Source: Candidatus Limnocylindria bacterium
Lineage (GTDB): Bacteria > Chloroflexota > Limnocylindria > P2-11E
Direction of reading: 5' to 3'
Assembly (NCBI GenBank): GCA_038207785.1
Contig: JBBQZK010000001.1
Location: 9,405-73,404, forward strand
Length of the DNA stretch: 64,000 nucleotides
Part shown: positions 3,391-62,989 of the stretch, one piece after another
How positions within the stretch are numbered: the first letter of the stretch is position 1
Layout: every line of letters starts with the position of its first letter
Made by a program: the position numbers and the translations under genes
Notes under the pieces: model-generated
Seen by the model: the letters and a program-made list of their open reading frames with translations, nothing else
Told to the model about the DNA's origin: nothing
The model's database searches: none

Positions 3391-4952
3391 CAGGCGACCT
3401 GCTCGGTCATCGACTCCTGTGCCTGCCGCTCGAGGGCCTTGCGATCGATCTTGCTCGTCCCGGACAGCGGGAACTCGTTCACGAAGAACACCCGTCGCGG
3501 GTGCGCGTACGCGGCGCCACGCTCGAGGTAGAAGGCCTTGATCTGCTCCTCGGTGACCTCGTGCCCTTCACGGCGCACGACGAACGCCACCGGCACGGCG
3601 CCCTTCAGTGCATGCGGGACCGGGACGACCGACGCCTCGAGCACCCCGGGGTGCTGGAGCACGATCGCCTCGACCTCCTTCGGGTAGACGTTTTCGCCGC
3701 CAACGCTGATCTGGTCGTCCTTGCGCCCGAGGAAGAAGTAGAACCCCTCGGCGTCACGGCGCATGAGGTCGCCGCTCTTCAGCCATCCATCCGGCGTGAA
3801 TCGGGCCGCGGTGACCTCGGGCAGGTTGTGGTAGCCGCGGGCATTCCCCGGATTGCGGATCCAGGTCTCGCCGATCTCGTCGACGCCGACATCGACACCA
3901 GCCTCGTCGACGAGCCGGACCTCCATCTCGGGCAGCAGGATCCCGCAGCTGCCGAGCTTCTTCTTCCCCCAGCGCGGGATGAGGATCGGGACCGGTCCGC
4001 TCTCCGTCATCCCGTAGCCCTCGACGACATCCACGCCGCCGAAGGCCTCCTGGAGCTGCTCGAGGAACTCGGCGGTCACGGGCGCCGAGCCGACGCCGAG
4101 GTAATTGACGCTCCGGACGTCGTGGGCCTTCAGGAACTCGTGGTCCCGCAGCATGAGCGCGAACATCGTGGGAACGCCGATCGTGTGCGTGCAGGCGTAG
4201 CGCTCGATGGCTTCGATCACCGCTCGCGGGTCGAACTTCGGCAGGATCACCGCGGACGCGCCGCCCAGGATGAACGGATAGAACGCGCCGCTCAGCGCGT
4301 TCGCGTGATACATCGGGCCGCTGATCAGCGTGCGCTCGTCCGGGCTGATGAGATGCGCCCGGCGGAGGATCTCGGCGTTGTGGATCTGACCGGCGTGGTG
4401 GAGCCGCACGCCCTTGGGCCGTCCGGTCGTCCCCGAGGTGTACGGCATCATGCATAGGTCCTCGAACTCGATCTCGACCGCGACGCGCTCCGCGGACGCG
4501 TCGGCGACCCAGCGGTCGTAGGAGACCCGGCCGGCGACCGACCTCACCGCGTCTTTGCCACAGAGGACGACCTGTCGGATCGTCGGGATGTCGGCGGCGA
4601 GCTGGACCGCGAGCTCGTGCCAGTCGGGTGAGGCGATGAGGATCCGAGACCCGCTGTCCGCCAGGACGTAACGCATCGCGTCGTTGCCCGACCGGACGTT
4701 CATCGGGACGGCGACCGCGCCGGCGCGCATGACACCGAAGAAGCACTCCACGAAATGGCGCTCGTTGCCCTGCATCAGGGCGACCCGCTCGCCCTTTTGG
4801 ATGCCACTCGCGAGCAGCGCGTTCGCGACCCTGTTCGCGCGAGCCTCGAGCTCGGCATAGGTGAGCTCGTCGCCGTCCTGGATGAGCGCGACCTTCGACG
4901 GCGAAACGCGATAGCCGATCTCCGGCAGGTACCCGAAGTTCTGGATGTACAC
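3390..4952 (-). CDS. AMP-dependent acyl-CoA synthetase/ligase
   Basis: It has the AMP-binding signature YTSGTTGRPKGV and the C-terminal ...SGDL...GRKDDQI...GENVYPKEVE. It uses a GTG start. Confidence 0.85.
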   Translation of the reverse strand: MYIQNFGYLPEIGYRVSPSKVALIQDGDELTYAELEARANRVANALLASGIQKGERVALMQGNERHFVECFFGVMRAGAVAVPMNVRSGNDAMRYVLADSGSRILIASPDWHELAVQLAADIPTIRQVVLCGKDAVRSVAGRVSYDRWVADASAERVAVEIEFEDLCMMPYTSGTTGRPKGVRLHHAGQIHNAEILRRAHLISPDERTLISGPMYHANALSGAFYPFILGGASAVILPKFDPRAVIEAIERYACTHTIGVPTMFALMLRDHEFLKAHDVRSVNYLGVGSAPVTAEFLEQLQEAFGGVDVVEGYGMTESGPVPILIPRWGKKKLGSCGILLPEMEVRLVDEAGVDVGVDEIGETWIRNPGNARGYHNLPEVTAARFTPDGWLKSGDLMRRDAEGFYFFLGRKDDQISVGGENVYPKEVEAIVLQHPGVLEASVVPVPHALKGAVPVAFVVRREGHEVTEEQIKAFYLERGAAYAHPRRVFFVNEFPLSGTSKIDRKALERQAQESMTEQVA

Positions 4953-12143: not shown

Positions 12144-13493
12144 TCAATGACCGGGCCCGGAGGCCGCGGGCGCATCCGATCGTGCCGCGGCGAACAGCGC
12201 CGCGCGATCGACCGGCGTCCCGCGCTTGAACACCATCGCGATGCCGGTGGTCGCGGCGATCGTCCGCGTCGGGTCGCCGACGACCAGAACGAGGTCCGCT
12301 CGCTTCCCCGGCGCAACGACGCCGATATCGCTCGCCCCGAGCGTCTCTGCAGGCACGCTCGTCGCCGCCCGGAGCGCGGCGGCGGGTGAAAGGCCGGACC
12401 GCACGAGAAGCTCGAGCTCGCGATGGAATGAACTGCCCGGCAGGATGTAGGCGAACGGCGCATCGGTCGCGGCATGCAGGCGCACGCCCGCTTCGAACAT
12501 CGCGCCGGTGAACCGCATGACCTTCTCGAGCGCCCGCGCCGCCTGCGAGTAATCGGCCGCCGACCAGCCCTCGACGAACCGGTCACGCGTCTCACGCCAC
12601 CCGGAGCGCGCGACCGCGGCGTACTCGGCCATCGCCGGGTCCGCGTCGAGCGCCTCGATGCCGCGCCGGCCCCGTTCCACCGTGCGATCAAGGGTGATGA
12701 GCGTGGGGTTCACGTAGATCCCCTGCTCGGCCAGCCGCGCCGCGATGCGCTTGGTCCGGTCGGCTCCGAGGTCGACGGCCGCCCAGCCGCGGACGAAGTT
12801 GGCCCAGAACGCGCCGAGCCCGCGGCGGCGGCGATCCTCCGCCGGCCAGATGAGCTCCTCGGGCACGACCTCGGTGTAGAGGGACTGGGCGGTGTGCTCG
12901 AGACCGGCGACGCCGCAGTCGATGGCCTCGCCGGCGCGCACCTGTCCGAGATGGGCGCTCGTGCTCAGGCCGTGCTCGCGGGCTCGCCGGACGAACGTCC
13001 GCATGGCGGCGGCAGGCAACATCATGTACGCCTTACACGCGTCGACCCGCTTCTCGTCCAGCAAGTCGGCCGCGCGCACGGCATCCTCGTCATTCGCGAG
13101 GGCAAGGGAATGATCGGGCCAGAACGGCTCGGCGCCGTCGATCAGCGGACCGCAGCAATAGATGCGCGGGCCGCCGTCGCCACCGGAGCGCTCCGCGGCT
13201 CGCCACGGCAGGATGCGTTCGAAGGAGTTCCCGACGTCCTTGACCGTGGTGATGCCATAGGCGAGCCACAGGGGGAGCGCCTGCGGCTGCACGTGCGTGT
13301 GCATGTCGATGAACCCTGGCAGCACGGTGTGGCCACGCCCCGCGATGGTCCGGGCGCCCGCCGGCACTGCCGTGCGTTCGCGCGGCCCGCAGGCGACGAT
13401 CAGCTCGCGCTCGAGCACGACAGTGGCGTCCTCGATCACCGGGGCGCCGGTCCCATCGAACAGCCGCGCGCCGACGATCGCGATGGGCGCCAC
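12144..13493 (-). CDS. amidohydrolase-superfamily metal-dependent hydrolase
   Basis: It has ...LPGFIDMHTHV... with HxH metal ligands and a C-terminal ...GTDAP.../...GKRADLVLV... region. The GTG start at 13493 follows the M20 stop; the ORF-track start would overlap 104 nt. Confidence 0.7.
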   Translation of the reverse strand: MAPIAIVGARLFDGTGAPVIEDATVVLERELIVACGPRERTAVPAGARTIAGRGHTVLPGFIDMHTHVQPQALPLWLAYGITTVKDVGNSFERILPWRAAERSGGDGGPRIYCCGPLIDGAEPFWPDHSLALANDEDAVRAADLLDEKRVDACKAYMMLPAAAMRTFVRRAREHGLSTSAHLGQVRAGEAIDCGVAGLEHTAQSLYTEVVPEELIWPAEDRRRRGLGAFWANFVRGWAAVDLGADRTKRIAARLAEQGIYVNPTLITLDRTVERGRRGIEALDADPAMAEYAAVARSGWRETRDRFVEGWSAADYSQAARALEKVMRFTGAMFEAGVRLHAATDAPFAYILPGSSFHRELELLVRSGLSPAAALRAATSVPAETLGASDIGVVAPGKRADLVLVVGDPTRTIAATTGIAMVFKRGTPVDRAALFAAARSDAPAASGPGH

Positions 13494-13497
13494 GGGC

Positions 13498-14853
13498 TCA
13501 GCCGGCGTCGGCGAACTCGCTGACGAAACGGGCCGTCGCCCGGGCGATCGGCTGAACGAGGTCCAGCCGGAGGTTCTCGTTCGGCGCGTGCAGGCGCGCA
13601 TCGGGATGCGTCATCCCGAGCGCGACGAACGGGACCTTGTGCGGATCGCAGATCGGATGCATCGGCGCCGTGCCGGGGCCGGAGATCAATCGAAGCCCTG
13701 GCGCGCCGTAGACCGCCTCGGTCGCCCGCTCCGCCGCGCGCACGAGCGGGTCATCGATCGGCGTCCAGTACGGCCGCTCCGCGGAATGCAGGGTCAGCTC
13801 GACATCGGCGAAGCCACGGCGCGCGAGGTGCTGCCGCAGCTGCTCGAACACCCTGAGTGGATCCTGGTCGGGCACGAGCCGCAGATCGAGGCGGGCCCTG
13901 GCCACCGCGGGAAGGATGGTCTTCGTTCCCGGCCCCATCCACCCTGCGGCGAGGCCGGTGATGTTGCAGGTGGGACTGAAGATCTGGGCCACCTTCGCGG
14001 CCTGTCCCGTCCGCCCCGCGACGAAGGCGGTCGCGCCATGCAGCGCGGCGAAGGCGCGCTCGTCGAACGGCAGCGTATCCAGATGCGCGAGCTGCCGTGC
14101 GGACGGCGGCAGAGCGTCGTCGAGGAATCCGTCGATGATGACCGAGCCATCCGGCGCGACCAGCGTGGCCAGCGCGGATGCCAGACGCGCCCCGGCGTTC
14201 GGCAGCAGCGAGGCATACATCGAGTGGGCGTCCTGGGCCAGCGTGCGGACCTCTAGCTCGAGATACAACATGCCGCGGACCCCGCAGCTCAAGAGCGGCC
14301 GATCGGCCGCGTCGACCTGACCGCCCTCGTTCAGCGCGCCGTCGGCGACGCCGAGCTCGGGACGCTTCGCGAGGAGGGCGCTCAAGTGCGGGCTGCCGGT
14401 CTCTTCCTCACCCTCGACCAGGAAGCGCACCCGGCAGGGCAGCTCGCCGAACGCCTCGCGGTACGCCTCGAGGACGTGGATGCGGGTCACCAGGTGCCCC
14501 TTGTTGTCGACGACGCCGCGCGCGAACAGCCGGCCATCACGCACCGCGGGGCTGAACGGCGGCGTCACCCATTCGGTCAGCGGATCGGCCGGCTGCACGT
14601 CGTAATGCTGGATCGCCAGCAGCGTCTTCGGTCCGGGTCCGATCTCCCCCACGACGAGCGCCGGGGCGCCGGGCAGCTCGACGGTCATGACCGCGCAGCC
14701 CGCGGCGCGAAGGCGCTCCGCGACCCACCGCGACGCGGTCGCGAGCGGCTGCGCCTGAGCGGTCTCGGACGGGATCGCGCAGAGCTCCCGGAGGTCCTCG
14801 ACGATGCGCGGCTGACGCTCGGACAGCAGGCGGTCGAAGGGACCGAACTCCAC
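13498..14853 (-). CDS. M20-family metallopeptidase (dipeptidase/ArgE/CPG2-like)
   Basis: It has ...HYDVQPAD...GVVDNKGHLV... and ...FLVEGEEETGS... motifs. It is ATGA-coupled to the upstream amidohydrolase. Confidence 0.8.
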   Translation of the reverse strand: MEFGPFDRLLSERQPRIVEDLRELCAIPSETAQAQPLATASRWVAERLRAAGCAVMTVELPGAPALVVGEIGPGPKTLLAIQHYDVQPADPLTEWVTPPFSPAVRDGRLFARGVVDNKGHLVTRIHVLEAYREAFGELPCRVRFLVEGEEETGSPHLSALLAKRPELGVADGALNEGGQVDAADRPLLSCGVRGMLYLELEVRTLAQDAHSMYASLLPNAGARLASALATLVAPDGSVIIDGFLDDALPPSARQLAHLDTLPFDERAFAALHGATAFVAGRTGQAAKVAQIFSPTCNITGLAAGWMGPGTKTILPAVARARLDLRLVPDQDPLRVFEQLRQHLARRGFADVELTLHSAERPYWTPIDDPLVRAAERATEAVYGAPGLRLISGPGTAPMHPICDPHKVPFVALGMTHPDARLHAPNENLRLDLVQPIARATARFVSEFADAG

Positions 14854-16235
14854 TAGCCCGCCTTCGCCGGCGCGCCGCCCGGTACGGCGGGCTGATCGTT
14901 CCTCGCGAGCGCATCCGCCGCCGCGAGCAGATCGGCGCGGTGGTGCAGCCGCCCGCCGAGCATGACCTGCTCGATGTCGTTGAGCGCCCGGATGTCGCGC
15001 GCCACGTCGCCGCGCGCGATGACCAGGTCGGCCCGCGCGCCCGCCCGGATGGTGCCCTCATCGGGAGCGCGGAACGCGGCCGCGGCCTGCCCGGTGGAGG
15101 CGTGGATGGCCTCGACCGGCGAGAGGCCGGCTTCGACCAGGTACTCGATCTCGCGGATGAGGCTCGCGCCGGGCGCGACCAGGCCGTCGACGGTGTCGGT
15201 CCCGGTGAGGATGCGGATCCCGGCTCGGTGCGCGAGACCGGTGAAGGCGGTCATGCCGGCCACCGAATCCTGCAGCTCGGTGATCTCGTCGTCGGTCAGC
15301 GGGTCGATGTACGGCGAGCCGGCGGTCTGCACGATCGCTTGGATCGCGGGGCTCAGGTGATCGATGCGCGGCCCGTCGCTGCGCGTCCGCTCGCCGACGT
15401 TGGACACCACGTTCTGGACCACGATCGTCGGATCGAGGAAGATCCGATCGCGGTGCGCCTGCCAGCTCTCGAGGGTCCGGGTCACCGCGCGCGAGTCCGG
15501 GTCGAACCGCGCCCAGTGCGCGGTGCGCCGCATCACGCGGAGGTCGAGCGGGAACCGGCCGACATAGGCCGGGTCGTCGTGCACCTCGCCGGGATGGGCC
15601 CGGACGTGCTCGAGGATCGTGAGGCCCTGGGAGATCGCCTCGACGCTCGTCATCGAGAGCGGCACGTGGCCGGTCAGCAGGATGTCGTGCTCCCGCGCGA
15701 ATGCGGTGATCTGGCGCATCGCGCCCGAGGAGACCCAGTTGTGGATCTTGAGGAACTCGACCCCGAAGGCGAGGTTGTTCTCGAGCAGCAGCTGGGTGTC
15801 GCGGCCCTCCCGCAGGAACCGCAGCTCGTTCTCCGCGCCGTTCAGGGTGACGCCGCTGATCCGCAGCCGGGGATTGACCTCATCCAGGTCGAGCCAGCGA
15901 CGGACGGCCGCGAGCTTGCCCAATGGCCCGCCCGCGTCCTTCAACCTGGTGACGCCATGGGCCAGCAGCAGCTTGAGCACCCATTTCGAGCGCGCGAGGG
16001 TGCCGTGGCCGATGTGGACGTGCATGTCCGACAGCCCCGGCAGCACGCTGTGCCCGGAGGTGTCGATGGCGGTCGCCGAAGACACTTCCGGAGGCGATCC
16101 CTGACCGACCGCGGCGATGCGTCCGCCGCGCACGTGGATCCAGGATCGCTCGAGCGGCGCGGCGCCGGTCCCGTCGATGAGCAGGCCGCCCGAGAGGATC
16201 AGATCGTTCGCGGTCGGGTCGGCCGTGTCACGCAT
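14853..16235 (-). CDS. amidohydrolase-superfamily protein
   Basis: It has ...VLPGLSDMHVHIGHG... and a C-terminal ...GTDTVDG.../...GARADLVIARGD... region. It is the first gene of the amidohydrolase-M20-amidohydrolase operon. Confidence 0.75.
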   Translation of the reverse strand: MRDTADPTANDLILSGGLLIDGTGAAPLERSWIHVRGGRIAAVGQGSPPEVSSATAIDTSGHSVLPGLSDMHVHIGHGTLARSKWVLKLLLAHGVTRLKDAGGPLGKLAAVRRWLDLDEVNPRLRISGVTLNGAENELRFLREGRDTQLLLENNLAFGVEFLKIHNWVSSGAMRQITAFAREHDILLTGHVPLSMTSVEAISQGLTILEHVRAHPGEVHDDPAYVGRFPLDLRVMRRTAHWARFDPDSRAVTRTLESWQAHRDRIFLDPTIVVQNVVSNVGERTRSDGPRIDHLSPAIQAIVQTAGSPYIDPLTDDEITELQDSVAGMTAFTGLAHRAGIRILTGTDTVDGLVAPGASLIREIEYLVEAGLSPVEAIHASTGQAAAAFRAPDEGTIRAGARADLVIARGDVARDIRALNDIEQVMLGGRLHHRADLLAAADALARNDQPAVPGGAPAKAG

Positions 16236-16253
16236 CGCTGCTCCAAGCCTTGG

Positions 16254-16267
16254 ATGTCACGTAACAT
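16254..16267. promoter_or_regulatory. operator ATGTCACGTAACAT in a divergent intergenic region; a TTGACC-N17-CATCAT cassette at 16280-16308 serves the minus-strand operon
   Basis: It lies 19 nt upstream of the minus-strand ATG at 16235 and 24 nt upstream of the plus-strand ATG at 16291. Confidence 0.7.
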
Positions 16268-16290
16268 GCAGGCGATCGGATGATGCGCGC

Positions 16291-17559
16291 ATGAGCACGG
16301 TCGGTCAAAGCGGGACGCTGCTGATCACGGGGGCGACCGTCTGGGACGGGACCGGCGACGCGGTGCGCGAGGACGTCGCGATGCGGATCGCGGGCTCGCG
16401 CATCGCGGCGATCGGCCGCACCGCGGACTTCGGCGCGCAGCCCGTGTCAGGTGCCGAGATCGACGGCCATGGCCTCTTCCTGATGCCCGGTCTCATCAAC
16501 ATGCACGAGCACCTGATCTTCCGTGGCACAGTCGGGCCACCGGCCGCGGCCCTCGGGCGCGGCGCCCCCGAGCTGACGATCCACGCCGTGCGGGTCGCGG
16601 CTACGGCGCTCGCGCAGGGCATCACGACGGTCCGCGACATGGGCACGAAGTTCGAGATCGCCCTCCGGCTGCGCGACGCGATCGGCGCCGGGCAGATCCT
16701 CGGTCCGCGCATCCTCGCCTGCAACAGCGCGATCCGGGTCACCGGCGGTCACGGCTATCAGGCGGTCCACGCCGATGGGGTCGCCGAGTTCCAGCGCGCG
16801 GCGCGGACGCAGCTCGCGGCAGGCGCCGATTTCATCAAGGTCATGGCGAGCCACGATCCGACGCCGATGCCCGGGCCCGAGCCCACGCGGCCGGAGTGCA
16901 CGGTCGACGAGCTCCGCGCCGCGTTCGAGGTGGCGCACGACTGGGGTCATCACGCCGGGTGCCACGTCATGGGGAGCACCGCGATCTCCCGCGCGCTGGA
17001 CGCCGGCGCCAATGTCATCGAGCACGGTCACTTCCTGACCGAGGACCAGGCCATCCGGATGGCTCGCGATGGGGTCACCTTCACGCCGACCCTCAGCGCG
17101 TACAACGTGCAGACCATGCATCCGCGTTTCAAGCGCGGCGCGGCATGGAAGGCGGCGCACGACGCGCTGCGCTCCGGGCATGCCTCGGCCATGCGCGCCG
17201 CCGTGAGCGCTGGTGTCGCGATGGTCGTGGGAACGGATTCCGTCGGCTGCTACGCCGAAGAGGTCGACCTCCTCCGCAAGGCCGGGGTCGGGACGTTGGA
17301 ATCGCTTCGCGCGTGCACCTCGAACGCCGCCCGCGCGCTCGGCTTGGACCAGGAGATCGGGACGATCAGCGTCGGTCGAATGGCGGACATCATCGCGCTG
17401 CGCGCCGATCCCCGGACCGACCCATACGCCCTCGAGCAGGTGCAGCTCGTGATCCGCGAGGGCCGGGTGCACCGACCGGCGGATCTGGTGTACGCCGAGT
17501 CCGCGCTTCCCGCCGAGGTATCGCTGACGACCCTGGTGCGCTCGCCTAGCAGCGCCTGA
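16291..17559 (+). CDS. amidohydrolase-superfamily protein
   Basis: It starts MSTVGQSGTLLITGATVWDGTG... and has ...MPGLINMHEHL... and ...GTDS.... The ORF-track start at 16117 is an over-extension. Confidence 0.75.
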   Translation: MSTVGQSGTLLITGATVWDGTGDAVREDVAMRIAGSRIAAIGRTADFGAQPVSGAEIDGHGLFLMPGLINMHEHLIFRGTVGPPAAALGRGAPELTIHAVRVAATALAQGITTVRDMGTKFEIALRLRDAIGAGQILGPRILACNSAIRVTGGHGYQAVHADGVAEFQRAARTQLAAGADFIKVMASHDPTPMPGPEPTRPECTVDELRAAFEVAHDWGHHAGCHVMGSTAISRALDAGANVIEHGHFLTEDQAIRMARDGVTFTPTLSAYNVQTMHPRFKRGAAWKAAHDALRSGHASAMRAAVSAGVAMVVGTDSVGCYAEEVDLLRKAGVGTLESLRACTSNAARALGLDQEIGTISVGRMADIIALRADPRTDPYALEQVQLVIREGRVHRPADLVYAESALPAEVSLTTLVRSPSSA

Positions 17560-26206: not shown

Positions 26207-28165
26207 CTAGCCCGGGCCGAACCCGTCGACCGGCGCGATCCGCCGTTGTCCCCGCGGACTCGTTTCCAGCACTTCGAGGATCGTGCCATCCGGTCCGAGG
26301 CGGTAGTCCTGCTCAGTGAGCTCGCTTACCCGATCGATCGCGACGCGCCAGGCCGTGCCTGCGGCCTCGCCAGCGGGCGGGCGGCTCGCCACAACGCTGA
26401 CACTGCGCGGCTCGCCACGCTCCAGCGTCAGCCCCTGCCGCGAAGCCTCGCCGGAGCTCGCCGCGACGGCCGCGGCGAGCGCGGTGACCGACACCCGTTC
26501 GGTGGCGATGACCTTCCCGGGCAAGGTGATCGTTGACTGGAATCCGTCGATGGCCTGGACCTCGACGATCGTGTCGCCACCCTCGGCGGACCGCACCTCG
26601 ATCGTGTCCTCGCCCAGCGGCGACACCATGCGCTGCGTGCCGCGGACGATGGTCCCGTCCGCCTTCAGATCGAGGCTGGTGGTCCGCACCATTCGCCCGC
26701 CCTGGCCCTGCTCGCTCGCGGTCCGCTCCTCGACGCGCAGCTCGCCCCGAGACGTACGGCTCCGGCGGAAGCTCGTCTCGGCGACCACCGCGCCGGCGAC
26801 CTCATCGCGCAGCCGCCCGGCCCGCAGGGCCGTAGCGTCGTCCGAGGGTGGATCGAGCTCCGTCTCGAACACGGGCGGCCGCTCAACAGCTCGCGCGCGG
26901 TCGGCCAGTCGCGCCTCGAGCGCATCGCGCGCGAAGTCGTAGCCGTTCACGAAGACGTGAGCGATCTCGCGGAGCGCGGCGACGTCGTCGACCGGATTGC
27001 CCGGGAGGAGCAGGAGATCCGCCCGCTTCCCCACCTCGACCGTCCCCCAGTCCGCCGTCTCGTTCACGAACCGCGCGGCTTCGACGGTCCCGCAACGCAG
27101 GGCCTCATAGCTCGAGAGGCCGGCCGCCCGCAGGTTTGCGAGCTCGCGGTGGATCGAGAAGCCCGGGATCACGTAGGGGTTCGGCGTGTCGGTGCCAAGG
27201 AGCAACGGGGCGCCTTCGCTATGCAGCACGCCGACGATGCGCCGGTAGACCTCGCTCAGCCGCGCGAGCGTGTCGTAGTAGTCGTCGTCGAAGGTCTGGC
27301 CGCGGAACCGGAAGTCCTGCGAGGGGTCCCAGGCCGCACGCGTGGCGGGGCTCATGTAGCGCAGGTACGGATCGAGCCTCGCCTGCGCCGGCCGTTGGGT
27401 GGTCTGCTGCCAGACGACACCGGTCGGGCAATTCCAGATCTGCTGCTCGTGCATCAGCACGGCGAGCCGCCGGATCGAATCCCAGTCGAGGTGCTCGATC
27501 GCGAGCTTCGCCAGGGCCAGGCGGTTGGCGCGGTCGCTCGGATCGGGCATCGTTACGCCCGCCTCCAAGTGATCGCGGCGAATGCCCGTGAGGTGCTCAA
27601 AGCAGGTGTGGCCGTTCGCGATCGCCTGCTCGTAGCTGATCGAGTCCGGGCAATGCCCGGTGATCATGACCCCGTGGGTCTTGGCCGCGACGCAGAGCGC
27701 GGCGTGGGACTCCGGGCTCAGCCACGAATACACTTTGATCTGCGGGTACCCGCGCTCCGCCCAGGCGCGCACGAGCGGCTCGGCCTGTTCGGGACGGGCG
27801 ACCATCGCCGAGGTGGACCAGATCGTGCGCCCGCTTTTGCCAGGGCCGTCGACGATCGGACTCGTCGTGATCAAATGGGGACCGGGGAGCAGGCCGTTAC
27901 GGATCTGTCGCTGGAGGGCCAGGTGCATCGGCGCGCCCCACATGTTGCGAACGGTCGTGACGCCGTTGGCGAGGTAGAGCCGGTACTCGTCCAGGTCCCA
28001 CCAGTGCACGTGCATGTCGGCGAGGCCGGGCATCAGGTACCGTCCGCGGCCCTCCACCACACGGGCGCCGGGTGGCACGACGCAGGTCGCCGCCGGACCG
28101 ATCGATCGGATCCGGCCGGCTTCGATGACGACGGTCTGATCGGGGATCACTGCGTCGCGGTCCAT
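26207..28165 (-). CDS. amidohydrolase-superfamily protein with a C-terminal extension of roughly 180 aa
   Basis: It has ...LMPGLADMHVHWWD... and ...GTDTPNP... and ...GKRADLLLLPGNP.... The ATG at 28165 follows the cupin gene stop; the ORF-track start at 28624 overlaps the cupin gene. Confidence 0.6.
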   Translation of the reverse strand: MDRDAVIPDQTVVIEAGRIRSIGPAATCVVPPGARVVEGRGRYLMPGLADMHVHWWDLDEYRLYLANGVTTVRNMWGAPMHLALQRQIRNGLLPGPHLITTSPIVDGPGKSGRTIWSTSAMVARPEQAEPLVRAWAERGYPQIKVYSWLSPESHAALCVAAKTHGVMITGHCPDSISYEQAIANGHTCFEHLTGIRRDHLEAGVTMPDPSDRANRLALAKLAIEHLDWDSIRRLAVLMHEQQIWNCPTGVVWQQTTQRPAQARLDPYLRYMSPATRAAWDPSQDFRFRGQTFDDDYYDTLARLSEVYRRIVGVLHSEGAPLLLGTDTPNPYVIPGFSIHRELANLRAAGLSSYEALRCGTVEAARFVNETADWGTVEVGKRADLLLLPGNPVDDVAALREIAHVFVNGYDFARDALEARLADRARAVERPPVFETELDPPSDDATALRAGRLRDEVAGAVVAETSFRRSRTSRGELRVEERTASEQGQGGRMVRTTSLDLKADGTIVRGTQRMVSPLGEDTIEVRSAEGGDTIVEVQAIDGFQSTITLPGKVIATERVSVTALAAAVAASSGEASRQGLTLERGEPRSVSVVASRPPAGEAAGTAWRVAIDRVSELTEQDYRLGPDGTILEVLETSPRGQRRIAPVDGFGPG

Positions 28166-28257
28166 CGGCACGAGCGTGACCGATGTGATCGCGACCGGAC
28201 CCTCGGGCCGCGCGGGAATGTCCAGGCCCTCGCGGAGGGCCGGCAGTCGAGCGGAGC

Positions 28258-28881
28258 TCACGCTCGGTCCGACCGCCAGGTCTCGCCGGCGTCCCGGATC
28301 GTCGCCGGTCCGCCGGCACGGACCCGGAGGTGGCCGAAGCGCTGGTTGATGCTCGAGCCGAGCGCCTCGATGTCGGCGCCGTACACGTGGATCGAGATGG
28401 CCGGACCTGCCCCGGCGTTGCTGACGCGGTGGATGTTCTCCTCGGGCGGGACGAGTGCCGAGCAGTCGCCGCGAGCCGCCCGCTCGTGTCCCGCCTCGAC
28501 GAGGTAGCGGTCCTCGCCGGACCGCATGAGGCGGTAGCGGATCTGGGACTCCTCCCCCTCGTACACGCCCACGACGCACCAGCAGATGTGGTCGTGGATG
28601 GGCGTGGCCTGGCCGGGATGCCACACGAGGGCGACGACGCTGAACGAGCGATCCGGGGAGACCGCGAGCACGTGTTGGGTGTAGCGGTCAGGGGTGCCGG
28701 CTCGCGCACCCTCGGGCAGCCACGAGCGATCCGCGAGGAGCGGCGGCAAGCGCCGCATCGCGAGATCGGCCATCTCCCGGGGACCTCTGCCGTCGGCCTG
28801 CGCCGCCGACAGCTGGGCCACGAACGATCGCAGCGCGGGCGCGAGCGTCGGCGCTGACGGACCGGACCTCACCGCTTGCAT
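28258..28881 (-). CDS. cupin-fold protein (cysteine dioxygenase type I-like)
   Basis: It has ...ALVWHPGQATPIHDHICWCVVGVYEGEE.... The ATG at 28881 lies inside the operator. The ORF-track GTG is at 28893. Confidence 0.55.
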   Translation of the reverse strand: MQAVRSGPSAPTLAPALRSFVAQLSAAQADGRGPREMADLAMRRLPPLLADRSWLPEGARAGTPDRYTQHVLAVSPDRSFSVVALVWHPGQATPIHDHICWCVVGVYEGEESQIRYRLMRSGEDRYLVEAGHERAARGDCSALVPPEENIHRVSNAGAGPAISIHVYGADIEALGSSINQRFGHLRVRAGGPATIRDAGETWRSDRA

Positions 28882-28893
28882 GTTACGTGACAC
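28880..28893. promoter_or_regulatory. operator variant ATGTTACGTGACAC spanning the stop of the amidohydrolase gene and the start of the cupin gene
   Basis: The amidohydrolase TAA is at 28885..28883 and the cupin ATG at 28881..28879. Confidence 0.5.
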
Positions 28894-30145
28894 GGCTGGT
28901 GCCGCCGCGCGGCCGCTCCTCGAGGGGAGCGGCTGAACGGATGCGGACCCCGGACTGCATCACGAACCGCACGCGCCCGCGGTCGCTGAAGAGCGCCGGC
29001 TCGGACAACGGGTCCCCGGCGACGCCGATGAGGTCCGCCTGCTTACCCGGTTCGAGCGTGCCGACCGTGTCCAGCCCGAGGCAGGCGGCCGCCGTCTTCG
29101 TGGCCGCCATGATGGCCTGCAACGGAGTCATGCCGGCTTCGACCATGAAGCTGATCTCCTCGGCGTTCGCGCCATGCGGGCCGATGCCGGTGTCCGTCCC
29201 CATCGCGATCCGCACGCCCATCCGGAGGGCCAGCTGGAATGCCTCACGATGCCGCCCGATCAGGGCGTCCGCCTTCTTGATCACGTAGCTCGGCATGGCC
29301 GCCGGATCCGCGTCGGCCCGCCGGCGGGTCCACGGCAGCGCCGAAAGCGTCGGCACGAGGAACGTTCCGCGCTCGACCATCATCAGGCAGGCTTCCTCGT
29401 CGAGGAAGGTCCCGTGCTCGATGGACTCGATCCCGGCAAGCACGGCGTTCTTGATCCCCTGCGCCGAGTGAGCGTGAGCCATCACGGTCTTCCCCGCGGC
29501 GTGCGCCTCGTAGACGACGACGGCGATCTCCTCCGGCGAGAATCCCGTGGCGGTCGGCTCGTCGCTCGGCGACATGACCCCACCCGAGGTCAGCACCTTG
29601 ATCTGATCGGCGCCCGCGCGGAGCAGCTCGCGGGTGCCACGCCGAACGGCGTCCACGCCGTCGACCACGGCCATCGGGCGCTCCGCGTCCACGGGAAGGC
29701 GCATGACCACGCCCATCGGCATGAGCTGATCGCCGTGCCCACCGGTCTGAGACAGCGCGCCGACCGAGAGGCGCATCCGCGGCCCCGGGAACAGGCCACG
29801 GTCCACCGCGAGCCTGACTCCACGGGGCGTCCCGCCGCCATCGCGCACGGTCGTGATGCCCGCCTCCAGCGTCGCGCGCGCGTTGAACAGAGCCTGGGCG
29901 GTCACGAGGCTCGACGGCGTGAGCAGCTTCTCCTGCGCGTTGAAGGTCGTGATCCCCAGGTGCACGTGGCTGTCGATGAGTCCGGGGAGGATCGTCAGCT
30001 CGGACGCGTCGATCACCTCCGCGTCTCGCGGGCGCTCGCTGCCGACGCGCTCGATGCGGCCGTCGGCGATGGTGATCCAGGCTGGGCGCACCGGATCGGC
30101 GCCGGTGCCGTCGATGACCCCGCCCGCGTGGATCGCCGTCCTCAC
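28883..30145 (-). CDS. amidohydrolase-superfamily protein
   Basis: It has ...ILPGLIDSHVHLG... and ...GTDTGIGPHG... and ...GKQADLIGV.... Confidence 0.75.
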   Translation of the reverse strand: MRTAIHAGGVIDGTGADPVRPAWITIADGRIERVGSERPRDAEVIDASELTILPGLIDSHVHLGITTFNAQEKLLTPSSLVTAQALFNARATLEAGITTVRDGGGTPRGVRLAVDRGLFPGPRMRLSVGALSQTGGHGDQLMPMGVVMRLPVDAERPMAVVDGVDAVRRGTRELLRAGADQIKVLTSGGVMSPSDEPTATGFSPEEIAVVVYEAHAAGKTVMAHAHSAQGIKNAVLAGIESIEHGTFLDEEACLMMVERGTFLVPTLSALPWTRRRADADPAAMPSYVIKKADALIGRHREAFQLALRMGVRIAMGTDTGIGPHGANAEEISFMVEAGMTPLQAIMAATKTAAACLGLDTVGTLEPGKQADLIGVAGDPLSEPALFSDRGRVRFVMQSGVRIRSAAPLEERPRGGTSRVT

Positions 30146-57746: not shown

Positions 57747-58463
57747 CTAGTGGCGCGGGCCGTGGCCGGTCGAGTCGGCGAGCTTGGCCATCCGGTCGGC
57801 CAGCCCGGTCTCGAGCTGCGTCGCCTGAGCGGCGGTGATGGTGCCGGCGGTCTTCGCGGCCTCGATCTTCGTGGTCGCGTCGGTGACGAGGGCTTGGATC
57901 AAGGCCTCGCGGGTCTTGCCTGCGGCCGTCGCGATCTGGGCCAGGGTCTGGCCGCCTTGCATCTTCGTGTGCAGATCGGCGGTCGTGGTGCCGAGGAACG
58001 TCGCCGCGGTGGCGAGCGGGTCCGCCTGCACGCCAAAGCCGAAGCCGTGGCCCGGGCCACCGGGGCCACCGTTCGGGTGCTGATCGGCCGTGCCGGGCTG
58101 GTCGACCATCGTCGAGATCGCCTGCCGCTCGGCACTGACGAGCGCGGCGATGAGTCCGTCGCGGGTCTTGCCGTTGGCGACCGCGATGGCCGCGAGGGTC
58201 TTGCCGGTCGCCAGCTGCGTCCGCAGGTCGGCCGCGGCGATGCCGATGTACGCGGCGGCGGCCGTCATGAGGTCGGCGCCCTTGGGACCGTTGTCGGACA
58301 GCACGCCGAGATCGGCGCCGATCTGCGCGGCGAGCTGGGTGCCTGGGCCGGGCTGGGCGGCCGCGGCGATCGCGGACGTCCAGACGATGCCGGCGCTCGC
58401 CACGCCGCCTGACAGGACGAGCGCGACACCGGTCGCGATGAGGGCCCGCTCGATGTTCTTCAC
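57747..58463 (-). CDS. secreted protein with internal ~45-aa tandem repeats
   Basis: It has a signal peptide MKNIERALIATGVALVLSGGVASA. Its repeats are ...ADLRTQLATGKTLAAIAVANGKTRDGLIAALV... and ...ADLHTKMQGGQTLAQIATAAGKTREALIQALV.... It uses a GTG start with an AAGGAG RBS. It is divergent from the two-component system. Confidence 0.5.
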   Translation of the reverse strand: MKNIERALIATGVALVLSGGVASAGIVWTSAIAAAAQPGPGTQLAAQIGADLGVLSDNGPKGADLMTAAAAYIGIAAADLRTQLATGKTLAAIAVANGKTRDGLIAALVSAERQAISTMVDQPGTADQHPNGGPGGPGHGFGFGVQADPLATAATFLGTTTADLHTKMQGGQTLAQIATAAGKTREALIQALVTDATTKIEAAKTAGTITAAQATQLETGLADRMAKLADSTGHGPRH

Positions 58464-60624: not shown

Positions 60625-60921
60625 ATCTACCATCGAACGACGGTCATCAATGCCCGCACCGTCCGTTGCAGCCACCGGGCCGACATCAAGCCGGTGTCTC
60701 CCGATGGCGACGGCTGCGCCGAATGTCTCGCCGTGGGCGACGAGTGGGTCCACCTGCGGATGTGCCTGACCTGTGGCGCCGTCCGGTGCTGCGACTCATC
60801 ACCGAATCAGCACGCCAGCAGACATGCGGACACGTCGGGACATCCGCTCGTGCGGTCGATGGAGCCGGGTGAAGGCTGGATGTGGTGCTACGTGGACGAG
60901 ATCTTCATAGAAGTCGCTTGA
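60625..60921 (+). CDS. UBP-type zinc-finger (zf-UBP) protein, with a start-codon problem
   Basis: It has ...RCSHRADIKPVSPDGDGCAECLAVGDEWVHLRMCLTCGAVRCCDSSPNQHASRHADTSGHPLVRSMEPGEGWMWCY.... The first Cys-His ligand pair lies upstream of the only in-frame GTG at 60694. No ATG, GTG or TTG lies between the histidine-kinase stop (60622-24) and that Cys codon. Confidence 0.55.
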   Translation: MYHRTTVINARTVRCSHRADIKPVSPDGDGCAECLAVGDEWVHLRMCLTCGAVRCCDSSPNQHASRHADTSGHPLVRSMEPGEGWMWCYVDEIFIEVA

Positions 60922-60979: not shown

Positions 60980-61123
60980 CTAGTGCTGCCCCATCGTCAC
61001 GATGAGCACGATGATCAGGATCGACACAAGGAAGATCGGTATCGCCAGCGCCGCGAAGATGATGTGGTCCTGCTGCCGGTACTGCGGATCGGGCTTGTGC
61101 GGCGGGGTCCCATGAGCGGCCAT
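60980..61123 (-). CDS. hypothetical 47-aa single-TM protein
   Basis: It reads MAAHGTPPHKPDPQYRQQDHIIFAALAIPIFLVSILIIVLIVTMGQH. No RBS was evident. Confidence 0.3.
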   Translation of the reverse strand: MAAHGTPPHKPDPQYRQQDHIIFAALAIPIFLVSILIIVLIVTMGQH

Positions 61124-61151: not shown

Positions 61152-61412
61152 GTGGAGATCGCGCTCCTCATCTGGTTCGCCGTCGGTGCTGGCATCGCCG
61201 CAGGCGCATTCATCATCGCCCGATCCACGATCCAGATCGCGTCCGTTGCGTACAACGTCCTCGAGAAGCGCCTCGATCCACGCGTGGCCACGCGTCAAAC
61301 GATCCTGCTGACGCTCGCTGCGATCGCGGCTCTCGTCGCGACCTCGATCATCGCCGGCATCGCGACCCTGGCGATGCTCCAGGGATTGATCGATGCGAGC
61401 GGCCTGAGCTAG
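61152..61412 (+). CDS. hypothetical small membrane protein (2 TM)
   Basis: It uses a GTG start and is followed by a strong hairpin terminator. Confidence 0.35.
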   Translation: MEIALLIWFAVGAGIAAGAFIIARSTIQIASVAYNVLEKRLDPRVATRQTILLTLAAIAALVATSIIAGIATLAMLQGLIDASGLS

Positions 61413-61424
61413 GAGCGCACGAAG

Positions 61425-61450
61425 AAGCGCCGGCTTGCGGGCCGGCGCTT
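61425..61450. terminator. intrinsic terminator hairpin AAGCGCCGGC-TTGCGG-GCCGGCGCTT, bidirectional
   Basis: It is a perfect 10-bp stem, with an A-run upstream and TTCATTGATCT downstream. Confidence 0.6.
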
Positions 61451-61615
61451 CATTGATCTGCGCGAGTGCGGTCACATTGTCTTTGGCGTTTCAGGCTGCG
61501 GCGAGGGCCGCGGCTGAAGCGGCTGATCGATCGGCTGACCCCCCGTTTGGCCTGGCTCGACCTGCGGCGGGGGATGTTCGCCGGGCCGCGGAGGAAGGGG
61601 CCCTTGAGGATTCAA

Positions 61616-62128
61616 CTAGCGCTCGGTCTCGCCGGTCGAGCCCTGGCCCGGCTTGCCCTGGCCACCCTGCGTTCCGCTCTGGCCACCCTGGCCACCGTGC
61701 GATCCGCTCTGGCCACCCTGGCCAACCTTCGTTCCGCTCTCGCCGCCCTGGCCACCCTGCTGCGAACCGCCCTGACCGCCCTGGCCACCGTGCGATCCGC
61801 TCTGGCCACCCTGGCCACCGTGCGATCCGCTCTGGCCACCCTGCGATCCGCTCTGGCCACCCTGGCCACCCTGCGATCCGCTCTGGCCACCCTGGCCACC
61901 GTGCGATCCGCTCTGGCCACCCTGCGTTCCGCTCTGGCCACCCTGACCAACCTTCGTTCCGCTCTGGCCGCCCTGGCCACCCTGCTGCGAACCGCCCTGA
62001 CCGCCCTGACGGCCGGCCTGGTCCTGCGGCTGGCCCTGCTTGCCCTGCTCGCCGTGCTTACCCTGCTGACCTTGGCCACCCTGGGATCCACCCTGGCTTC
62101 CTTGTCCCTGCTTGTCCTTGTCCTGCAT
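61616..62128 (-). CDS. Gly/Gln/Ser-rich low-complexity (GGQ-repeat) intrinsically disordered protein
   Basis: It reads MQDKDKQGQGSQGGSQGGQGQQGKHGEQGKQ...(QGGQSGSHGG)n...GETER. It has a strong AAGGAGG RBS. The ORF-track start is over-extended. Confidence 0.6.
   Translation of the reverse strand: MQDKDKQGQGSQGGSQGGQGQQGKHGEQGKQGQPQDQAGRQGGQGGSQQGGQGGQSGTKVGQGGQSGTQGGQSGSHGGQGGQSGSQGGQGGQSGSQGGQSGSHGGQGGQSGSHGGQGGQGGSQQGGQGGESGTKVGQGGQSGSHGGQGGQSGTQGGQGKPGQGSTGETER
61640..62100. repeat. coding minisatellite with 24/30-bp periodicity (unit about CCGCTCTGGCCACCCTGGCCACCGTGCGAT) and a ~210-bp higher-order duplication
   Basis: Directly visible tandem repeats. The block ccaaccttcgttccgctct.gccgccctggccaccctgctgcgaaccgccctgaccgccctg occurs twice. 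Confidence 0.7.
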
Positions 62129-62216
62129 TGCGTGGCCTCCTTCGTATTTACCGGCGAGCCGGCTCCTTCTATCGCCGCAGAGGCCGTGCCAGAGACCGTA
62201 CGCGGCCGCCTGGCCG

Positions 62217-62657
62217 TCACCCGTTACGAACGGCCGAGCCGCGCCCACGCGGTCGGTCGTCCAGCCGCGCGACAAGCGCGCGGACCCGGCGCTCGATGCC
62301 GTCACGGACAAGCCGGAAGGCCGCAAGCCGCTCCTCGTCCGGACCGCGCGCGAGCGCGGGGTCGGCGAGCTTCCACCGCAGCTGTACCGCGGCGCCGGGC
62401 GGGATCGGACAGTTCGCATCGCACACCGTGACGCAGATGTCGAAGGGTCCGGCGACGTCGTCCACGCACGTGCTGCGCTGGGCCCTGATATCGATCCCCA
62501 CCTCGGCCATCGCGCGGATCGCGAGCGGATGGAGCTCGCTCGCGACCGTGCCCGCGCTCTCGGCGACGAACCGATCGCCGCCGAGCGCGCGGAGGAATGC
62601 TTCGGCCATCTGCGAGCGGGCGGAGTTGTGCCCGCAGAGGAACAGCACGCGCGTCAC
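62217..62657 (-). CDS. arsC: LMW-PTP-family arsenate reductase (thioredoxin-coupled ArsC type) / low-molecular-weight phosphatase
   Basis: It has the P-loop LFLCGHNSARSQMAEA (CX5R) plus downstream ...VTVCDANCP... cysteines in the ArsC positions. Confidence 0.65.
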   Translation of the reverse strand: MTRVLFLCGHNSARSQMAEAFLRALGGDRFVAESAGTVASELHPLAIRAMAEVGIDIRAQRSTCVDDVAGPFDICVTVCDANCPIPPGAAVQLRWKLADPALARGPDEERLAAFRLVRDGIERRVRALVARLDDRPRGRGSAVRNG

Positions 62658-62683
62658 ATGGCTATGGTGCCATCGCCGCGGAC

Positions 62684-62989
62684 CTACTCGGGAAGCTTGA
62701 GCTTCTTTCCCGGGTGGATCATGTCGGGGTCGTCCCCGATGACATCCTTGTTCAGCTCGTAGATCTCTTTCCAGCGGTTCGCGTCGCCGAGCTGCTCCTG
62801 GGCGATGTCCGAAAGGTTGTCACCGTCCTTGATCGTGTAGGACTTCTCGGACTTCTCGGACTTCTCCGACTTATCTGCGGCCTTGATCTCGTCGGGCGCG
62901 TGGATCTCGCTCCCGGGAATGACCTTGTACTCCTTCGGTGCGTAATCCGGGGTCTTGGTCTCGCTGTCGGTGCCTGCGTCGTTCGGCAT
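62684..62989 (-). CDS. small LysM-domain protein with an N-terminal Lys/Glu/Ser-rich (KSEKSEKSEKS) tail
   Basis: The C-terminal ...YTIKDGDNLSDIAQEQLGDANRWKEIYELNKDVIGDDPDMIHPGKKLKLP is a LysM fold. Confidence 0.65.
   Translation of the reverse strand: MPNDAGTDSETKTPDYAPKEYKVIPGSEIHAPDEIKAADKSEKSEKSEKSYTIKDGDNLSDIAQEQLGDANRWKEIYELNKDVIGDDPDMIHPGKKLKLPE

Follow-up and report, generated by a model that had tools for sequence, protein, structure and literature searches.

The window analysed here, a stretch of 64,000 nucleotides from contig JBBQZK010000001.1 of a soil bacterium (Candidatus Limnocylindria), contains on its minus strand an open reading frame (ORF) of 170 codons that is dominated by Gly-Gly-Gln-rich repeats and is called the GGQ ORF below. 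What is new is its distribution and position: the GGQ ORF occurs in none of the sampled relatives and is fused in frame, but for a single TAG, to the front of a conserved small gene with a sigma54-type promoter, which is its apparent source. We consider the chances about even that the GGQ ORF is a real, lineage-specific gene for a disordered repeat protein, which would have been derived from a duplicate of the small gene, would be expressed conditionally and would encode a protectant or an inert spacer. The elements on which this reading is built are the following.

61616..62128, minus strand: GGQ ORF, 170 codons plus TAG, encoding a Gly/Gln/Ser-rich, predicted-disordered polypeptide
61656..61985, minus strand: minisatellite array of 9-bp GGTGGCCAG and 21-bp GGTGGCCAGAGCGGA[T/A]CGCA[C/G] units, with a higher-order offset of 225 bp
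61472..61615, minus strand: proline-rich small ORF of 47 codons, LNPQGPLPPRPGEHPPPQVEPGQTGGQPIDQPLQPRPSPQPETPKTM and a stop codon, whose TTG start abuts, in frame, the TAG of the GGQ ORF
62177..62191, minus strand: sigma54-type -24/-12 element TGGCACGGCCTCTGC with canonical spacing, 63 nt 5' of the GGQ ATG
62129..62176, minus strand: 5' leader with two Shine-Dalgarno (SD)-like copies, AGAAGGAG at 62170-62163 and AAGGAGG at 62142-62136
61424..61451, minus strand: GC-rich, terminator-like hairpin of 11 bp, GAAGCGCCGGC...GCCGGCGCTTC, 3' of the proline-rich ORF and shared with the convergent gene for an 86-amino-acid (aa) protein

Results

Position of the GGQ block and proposed origin of the GGQ ORF

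The locus was compared with 17 related metagenomic loci (L144 and L225-L240), all of which share the order MerR/HTH_17, MFS_3, LMWPc, small gene, 86-aa membrane gene, 47-48-aa gene, zf-UBP, histidine kinase and response regulator. The small gene is located 0-91 nt 3' of the ArsC-like LMWPc gene and in some loci overlaps the stop codon of the latter. The GGQ ORF is lineage-specific, as it occurs in the window genome and in none of the 17 sampled relatives, in which its position holds only a proline-rich small gene of 44-50 codons. The ArsC-like proteins of the relatives are 75-84% identical to that of the window, indicating that close relatives of the window genome are not among the sampled loci. 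A metagenome scan with the ArsC-like protein returned 80 loci, none of which contained a G/Q-rich ORF and one of which was syntenic (L144, 81% identity). Downstream of its ArsC-like gene, L144 has agaaggaggccccgcaATG and then the 50-codon ORF MPLLNPQGPLPPRPGEHPPPQVEEGKQGGQPIDQPLQPRPAPHPETPKTI (3856-4008). The window has cgaaggaggccacgcaATG, followed by the 510-bp GGQ block, which ends with GAG CGC TAG, and then TTG AAT CCT CAA GGG. The region from the SD sequence to the ATG is nearly identical in both, and the GGQ block sits in frame between the ATG and the residues LNPQGP.

The N-terminal part of the GGQ ORF contains two short similarities to the small gene. Its first codons, ATG CAG GAC AAG (GAC AAG) CAG GGA CAA GGA, resemble ATG CAG GAG AAG CAG GGT CAG GGT (MQEKQGQG) of locus L228, although nt 10-29 taken alone do not match the L228 start significantly (p 0.12-0.39 in codon shuffles). 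Further downstream, codons 26-37 (nt 77-111) match nt 56-93 of the L229 gene, GAGCAGGGCAAGCAGGGC---CAGCCG...GACCAG, with p 0.001-0.008 in codon shuffles; DNA matches of the same codons to several other family members were not significant. A profile hidden Markov model (HMM) built from nine members of the small-protein family scored 17.0 bits against the first 45 aa and 19.7 bits against the first 60 aa of the GGQ protein, compared to 7.2-7.6 bits (standard deviation ~2.4) for composition-matched shuffles (p=0.001 and 0/2000). The alignment is colinear and comprises 11 residues, with EqGkqggqPiDq (family positions 23-34) facing EQGKQ-GQPQDQ (GGQ positions 27-37). The GGQ ORF shares with the proline-rich family the promoter motif, the SD sequence, the ATG and the locus, and it has kept MQ[DE]K..QGQG and EQGKQ(G)GQPxDQ. 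It differs from the family members (P0006, P0009-P0015; 44-50 aa) in its length of 170 aa and its content of only 2 Pro, and the resemblance ends after residue 40.

Because of the short similarities, the shared promoter, SD sequence and ATG and the in-frame layout, a duplication is the most economical account of the origin of the GGQ ORF. The conserved small gene would have been duplicated in tandem, or internally in frame, and the upstream duplicate would have retained the promoter, the SD sequence, the ATG and a recognisable N-terminal core, while the remainder would have been replaced by expansion of 9-bp GGQ and 21-bp GGQSGS[H/Q] units. Thereby, the GGQ ORF would have captured the promoter and the ribosome-binding site, with the ancestral ORF persisting downstream.

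The proline-rich small gene

The members of the small-gene family encode 44-50 aa with ~36% Pro and are repeat-free, with the consensus M..NPQGPLPPRPGEHPPPQVEQGKQGGQPIDQPLQPRPAPQPETPKTI, to which the window ORF belongs with 74-89% identity. They are always found directly 3' of the gene for an ArsC-like low-molecular-weight phosphatase. Searches returned two representatives and one unrelated repeat-protein match among 1.84 billion proteins and eight clusters among 5.8 billion, there was no Pfam match, and AlphaFold2 on the family alignment gave a predicted local distance difference test score (pLDDT) of 70 and no regular secondary structure. This family adjoining ArsC-like genes is previously undescribed. 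For the member at L225 2342-2523 (P0006), the public call reads the TGA of the small gene as Trp and arrives at 60 aa; the DNA contains a normal 47-codon ORF, and the longer protein is an annotation artefact.

Comparison of the small ORF in the window with that of L144 gave 26 base differences, of which 19 lie at third positions; among the differing codons, 15 are synonymous and 6 nonsynonymous. As the wobble positions are shared with one antisense frame, which scores 14/6 against 15/6, the conserved SD-ATG, the conserved stop codon and the hairpin that follows were used to assign the strand. Eleven bases are unique to the window ORF, and seven of them are at third positions, indicating that purifying selection acted on the ORF during most of the branch that leads to the window. 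Judged by this substitution pattern, the proline-rich small ORF is evolving as a coding sequence, also in the window. It has neither an SD sequence nor an ATG of its own there, and its translation, if any, would most likely proceed by reinitiation.

Expression signals

The element TGGCACGGCCTCTGC is the sole match to TGGCAYGNNNNYTGC on both strands of the 64-kb window, with 0.12 matches expected. It agrees with the -24/-12 sequence pattern of sigma54 promoters, with GG at -24 and GC at -12; its -12 element reads CTGC and not TTGC as in the canonical TGGCAC-N5-TTGC. The relatives have their sole match or near-match to this motif at the same position; among ten that were checked, eight were exact and L144 and L225 deviated at one or two positions. 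In the intergenic alignment (A3), T-GGCA-G-C...TGC is the only invariant block, with variable flanks. A scan for sigma70 promoters gave no match, and a scan for intrinsic terminators returned only spurious sites.

The leader of the window is predicted to be unstructured (-7.8 kcal/mol, z +0.78). In most relatives, a hairpin pairs with or abuts the SD sequence: of six leaders that were folded, four gave z between -2.0 and -3.0, and L228 and L232 gave weaker values. The terminator-like hairpin has a predicted folding energy of -33 kcal/mol (z -3.1), and the same hairpin is found in L144 (z -5.2) and L225 (z -4.3). There is no hairpin between the GGQ stop codon and the proline-rich ORF, so that both ORFs should share one mRNA. 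The TAG that separates them also ends the adjacent LysM gene, indicating that it is an ordinary stop codon in this genome.

From these signals, transcription would be expected to start at the sigma54-type promoter in a conditional and activator-dependent manner and to run through both ORFs to the conserved hairpin. The first-pass annotation had called the protein strongly expressed, whereas the sole promoter-like element that was found is of the sigma54 type and would imply conditional expression. Ribosomes could load on the exposed AAGGAGG, as the hairpin that sequesters the SD sequence in most relatives has apparently been lost, and would produce the GGQ polypeptide up to the TAG. If the proline-rich ORF is translated as well, this would happen through termination-reinitiation where UAG and UUG abut.

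The repeat array and its support by independent assembly

The first-pass annotation had described tandem repeats of 24/30 bp with a higher-order duplication of about 210 bp. Tandem repetition is real, but the units measure 9 bp (GGTGGCCAG, encoding GGQ) and 21 bp (GGTGGCCAGAGCGGA[T/A]CGCA[C/G], encoding GGQSG[S/T][H/Q]), which add up to periods of 30, 51 and 81 bp, and the higher-order copy is offset by 225 bp with 79% identity. Tandem Repeats Finder reported a period of 30 with 11.5 copies (61656-61985, score 367) and a period of 81 with 3.0 copies (90%, score 368), besides periods of 21 and 51. With up to three mismatches, the 20-mer GGTGGCCAGAGCGGATCGCA occurs nine times against 0.05 expected, and within the window it is confined to the GGQ ORF. 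The repeat DNA is prone to slippage, as the first-pass annotation had proposed, and the length of every unit is a multiple of three. Outside of the repeats, the GGQ ORF has a head of 40 codons and a tail of 16 codons.

Records of the neighbouring proteins exist for an NCBI contig and for an independent assembly of run SRR19962011. In this assembly, contig L001 comprises the ArsC-like gene, promoter, leader and ATG and reaches into the array as far as window position 61967, and contig L224 comprises the TAG and the genes downstream and reaches into the array as far as 61687. Within the block, this coverage amounts to 162 bp at the 5' junction, with both unique and repeat sequence, and to 72 bp at the 3' junction. 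Both contigs end within the array, so that its interior 279 bp (61688-61966), and likewise the copy number, come from the deposited assembly alone. The end of L001 coincides with the point of divergence between the two higher-order copies (GGCGGC|C versus GGCGGC|G). Both array junctions and the stop codon are solid. The misassembly that the first-pass annotation had named as a possible refutation would accordingly concern the number of repeats and not the presence of the block.

The GGQ product

The GGQ ORF starts with the ATG at 62128 and ends with the TAG at 61618-61616, and the SD sequence AAGGAGG lies 7 nt 5' of the ATG. The initial description of a 170-aa ORF with an AAGGAGG ribosome-binding site was borne out: the ORF is translatable on the minus strand and has a strong SD sequence, and an independent gene call on contig L001 selected the same ATG. 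The product opens with MQDKDKQGQG / MQDKDKQGQGSQGG and ends with GSTGETER. Its extreme composition had also been recognised correctly, with 42.4% Gly, 25.9% Gln and 12.4% Ser (together 81%) and a grand average of hydropathy (GRAVY) of -1.60. The 170 residues include 9 Lys plus Arg, 7 Asp plus Glu, 5 His, 2 Val, 1 Ala and 1 Met, but no aromatic residue, Leu, Ile or Cys. A signal peptide or hydrophobic segment was not found in the protein. AlphaFold2 run on the single sequence returned a mean pLDDT of 46.1, a predicted template-modelling score of 0.11 and no DSSP elements. With no stable predicted fold and few order-promoting residues, the protein is by prediction intrinsically disordered, as the first reading of the sequence had proposed.

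Antisense frames of the array (ALATLRS..., GHPGHRAIRS...) were rejected, as they have no start codon or SD sequence and continue into the antisense strand of the ArsC-like gene. On the plus strand at 61616-62700, the repeat and the ArsC-like gene are overlapped in antisense by long shadow ORFs (421 and 321 aa); such ORFs are typical artefacts of high-GC DNA and carry a risk of miscalling.

Searches of Pfam and NCBIfam with the GGQ protein gave no family at E<=1, including the KGG-repeat family PF10685, LEA and other curated stress families, and the best match in the PDB had E=0.52. Against 5.8 billion proteins, phmmer found nothing at E<=0.001 and at E<=10 only three low-complexity coincidences, namely MT0933-like and DUF2795 proteins with GGQ tails and one S1-domain protein. 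The composition correction of HMMER strips any signal from the GGQ protein, so that this lack of homologues is weak evidence. A genome scan with confirmation by tblastn yielded 600 pattern matches, none of which was confirmed, and the viral contigs searched gave unrelated matches only. The degenerate DNA pattern for QGGQGGQSG was found at more than 120 genomic loci, mostly in linkers of SSB, Rho and IF2 or as off-frame matches; the few stand-alone G/Q-rich ORFs among them belong to Gemmatimonadota, Alphaproteobacteria and Chloroflexota, and none is demonstrably homologous. An exact-sequence look-up in the protein collection found the neighbouring proteins but not the 170-aa protein itself.

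Neighbouring genes and other observations in the window

The genes next to the GGQ ORF and the proline-rich ORF are listed below.

62217..62657, minus strand: LMWPc/ArsC-like gene (PF01451, E=7.7e-13; TIGR02691, 104 bits, below cut-off)
62684..62989, minus strand: LysM-domain gene (PF01476, E=2.1e-7; NF008399, YgaU-type LysM, E=5.9e-16, below cut-off)
61152-61412, plus strand: 86-aa membrane protein without family, present in every relative locus
60980-61123, minus strand: 47-48-aa ORF with a hydrophobic C-terminus, present in every relative locus
60694-60921, plus strand: 75-aa zf-UBP zinc-finger protein, present in every relative locus

As the first-pass annotation had stated, the LysM gene (62989->62684) and the ArsC-like gene (62657->62217) lie on the same strand as the GGQ ORF. 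The LysM gene has a YgaU-like C-terminus and an N-terminus with a 9-bp repeat of its own that encodes KSEKSEKSEKS. It is missing between MFS_3 and LMWPc in all 17 relatives, in which the gap between these genes measures only ~19-70 nt. Compared to these loci, the window genome has gained two hydrophilic repeat-bearing ORFs, GGQ and LysM, that flank one ArsC-like gene. The 47-48-aa, 86-aa and zf-UBP genes together with the histidine kinase/response regulator pair form a tightly conserved block. The wider neighbourhood contains a two-component system, LUD-domain proteins, transporters and amino-acid biosynthesis genes, and stress genes are not among them. Rfam and tRNA scans of the 64-kb window were empty. 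In a tblastn search of plasmids with IlvB, the best match was to Gemmatirosa at 49.5% identity; neither this match nor NCBIfam annotation of ten large ORFs pointed to a particular phylum.

Elsewhere in the window, an ORF of 238 aa with high GC content at third codon positions (GC3) and no Pfam match (57747-58463, minus strand) apparently contains two copies of a ~35-aa unit (..ADL.T....G.TLA.IA.A.GKTR..LI.ALV..), and a gene of similar size adjoins the response regulator in the relatives (L226 9054-9803). At 12144-17559 and 26207-30145, there are five paralogous ORFs of the amidohydrolase family, for which Xaa-Pro dipeptidase was the best NCBIfam model, in all cases below cut-off; this cluster adjoins an oligopeptide-type ABC substrate-binding protein.

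Discussion

Several observations weigh against reading the GGQ ORF as a gene derived from the small gene and expressed from its promoter. The array is open in all six frames, so that the length of the ORF is no evidence of coding. Its units vary at nonsynonymous sites only, with identical codon choice, indicating that the array is young or homogenised and holds no internal signal of selection at the protein level. The GC3 of the GGQ ORF is 0.75, compared to 0.84-0.90 in most neighbouring genes (zf-UBP 0.77), and the block is known from a single genome. The similarity between the GGQ N-terminus and the small gene is short and G/Q-rich, and pairwise Smith-Waterman comparison of the proteins gave marginal values (p 0.002-0.2). 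With respect to the promoter, RpoN-box and GAFTGA enhancer-binding-protein signatures are absent from the 64-kb window, which is part of the genome, and from the related loci. Actinobacteria lack sigma54 (PMC3162934), and for an actinobacterial host the promoter reading would fail. Finally, the GC3 of the small ORF is 0.69 in the window compared to 0.81-0.90 in most relatives and 0.71 in L144, and five of its seven unique third-position changes are from G to A or T. This shift could reflect relaxed selection and is also compatible with weaker expression at present.

Many of these points also fit a serious alternative, which we consider unlikely but far from negligible, namely that the small gene was in effect disrupted by a neutral accident, in which a minisatellite recently expanded within its 5' end, and that any GGQ product made is without selected function. 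The occurrence in one genome, the near-identical units, the lowered GC3 of both ORFs and the G to A/T drift of the small ORF would be expected from such an event, and the stop codon indeed severs the block from the conserved part. In contrast, the small ORF is still intact and most of its unique changes are at third positions, the non-repetitive head and tail of the GGQ ORF suggest some age, and the leader has been remodelled in such a way that the SD sequence is exposed. A different possibility, and a rather improbable one in our view, is that both ORFs form one protein of ~218 aa with the GGQ part as disordered N-terminal extension, and that the TAG is a strain-specific nonsense mutation, a read error or a site of read-through. 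Both ORFs are indeed in one frame with a single codon between them, as an in-frame internal duplication would produce it, and a single transition separates the TAG from CAG, which accounts for 42 of the 170 codons of the block, more than any other codon. However, the TAG was reproduced in the independent read assembly and serves as ordinary stop codon of the LysM gene as well, and no tRNA gene was found in the window. Efficient termination is favoured in E. coli when the stop codon is followed by U, which counts against read-through at UAG-UUG.

Two further explanations appear very improbable to us. The repeat block or its length could originate from misassembly of short reads, as might be suggested by the ends of both independent contigs within the array and by the exact 170-aa protein not being on record while its neighbours are. 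Both junctions were, however, reproduced independently, leaving only the copy number at risk, and the end of L001 at the point where the higher-order copies diverge is what a real duplicated structure would cause. Similarly remote is the idea that the GGQ product is not a cytoplasmic disordered protein but a structural or secreted one, such as a collagen-like protein, a polyglycine-II bundle or a surface fibre. A Gly content of 42% with many GGX triplets and the existence of a GGQ-rich ORF with a signal peptide in locus L033 would be in line with this idea. Against it stand the missing signal peptide and hydrophobic segment (2 Val, 1 Ala, 1 Met) and the pLDDT of 46 without any ordered AlphaFold2 model. 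The 7- and 10-residue units (GGQSGSH, GGQGGQSGSQ) moreover break the Gly-X-Y or GGX register, and Pfam gave no collagen match, so that the sequence does not follow the collagen pattern.

The function of the GGQ product, which may be that of a hydrophilin-like protectant or of an inert spacer, is the weakest step of our interpretation. With few charges and no aromatic residues, the GGQ product would behave as a very soluble random coil. The lack of aromatic "stickers" together with the low number of charges makes it resemble an inert soluble spacer more than a condensate-forming domain. For hydrophilins, Garay-Arroyo and colleagues in 2000 reportedly set thresholds of >~6% Gly and a mean hydropathy <~-1. 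The class is defined by high Gly content and high mean hydrophilicity (PMC4190154), and the Gly content and GRAVY of the GGQ protein place it within this compositional range. Bacterial hydrophilins have been tied to desiccation tolerance, with DtpA and DtpB of Acinetobacter baumannii as reviewed examples (PMC13552118). Like E. coli YciG and Bacillus subtilis GsiB, which belong to the KGG-repeat family PF10685, and like DtpA/DtpB, the GGQ protein is small, very hydrophilic, Gly-rich, repetitive and predicted to be disordered. In contrast to them, it has neither sequence similarity nor a KGG motif, it contains much Gln and Ser and few charged residues, and the upstream element is of the sigma54 type and not of a general-stress type. 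The suggested resemblance to hydrophilins or stress proteins therefore stands for the composition, whereas homology to any such family was not found. A protectant role is plausible, but we hold it only tentatively and would rather doubt it than assume it.

Low complexity of the same GGQ type, encoded by GC-rich repeat DNA, is found in Gly/Gln-rich tails and linkers such as the C-terminal tails of SSB, the N-terminal inserts of Rho and the tails of MT0933-like and DUF2795 proteins. These are appendages of folded domains, whereas the GGQ repeat makes up nearly the whole protein and would become an appendage only upon read-through of the TAG. The tail of Acinetobacter Hfq contains the repeat GGFGGQ. 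A link between this Gly-rich tail and desiccation tolerance has been described (PMC13552118). The closest stand-alone counterpart considered is a 185-aa G/S/Q-rich ORF from a Gemmatimonadaceae metagenome-assembled genome (MAG; L030, 1329-1901, minus strand), which has a charged N-terminus and SGSHGG and GGQGGQ runs. Homology between the two is not detectable after composition correction (E=7.5), and the gene context differs. About 88 nt upstream of the L030 ORF, there is a perfect sigma54 consensus, TGGCACACGCGTTGC, and a stand-alone G/Q-rich ORF in an alphaproteobacterial MAG (L103) is preceded by GGAAC-N17-CGTT, a motif of the EcfG general-stress type; the stand-alone G/Q/S-rich ORFs in L068 and L115 have only near-matches to sites of alternative sigma factors. 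The motifs upstream of the unrelated ORFs in L030 and L103 provide a supporting analogy for a protectant role. A wider interpretation would see in the window a young gene from a sigma54-controlled duplicate with a reinitiated ancestral ORF, and in this gene together with the ORFs of L030 and L103, from two other phyla, the repeated, independent invention of Gly/Gln-rich protectants under alternative sigma factors in soil bacteria. This is conceivable, but we think that it probably goes too far.

In its mode of origin, the GGQ ORF may have a counterpart among eukaryotes. The notothenioid antifreeze glycoprotein gene is derived from trypsinogen. A parallel to the mode of origin proposed here is offered by the antifreeze glycoprotein genes of codfish (PMC8622921). 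Common to the fish genes and the proposed origin of the GGQ ORF is the amplification of a short coding unit into a new repetitive protein, which makes use of expression signals of DNA or of a gene that existed before. The fish genes differ in being eukaryotic, with secreted and glycosylated products of proven function.

The GGQ gene belongs to no known family of stress proteins and is a possible candidate for gene birth by duplication and repeat expansion. The relatives also reveal a previously undescribed conserved module, in which an ArsC-like gene is followed by a promoter of the sigma54 type, a structured leader and the gene for a proline-rich protein of 47 aa. If our interpretation is correct, the locus would represent a rare and clean prokaryotic case in which a new coding gene arose from a duplicated small gene via repeat expansion, while the relatives would preserve the ancestral state and the window genome would still carry the ancestral ORF joined to the new gene. 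Its product would then be a charge-poor Gly/Gln/Ser type among the hydrophilin-like proteins of bacteria, a group of interest for desiccation biology and for protein stabilisation.

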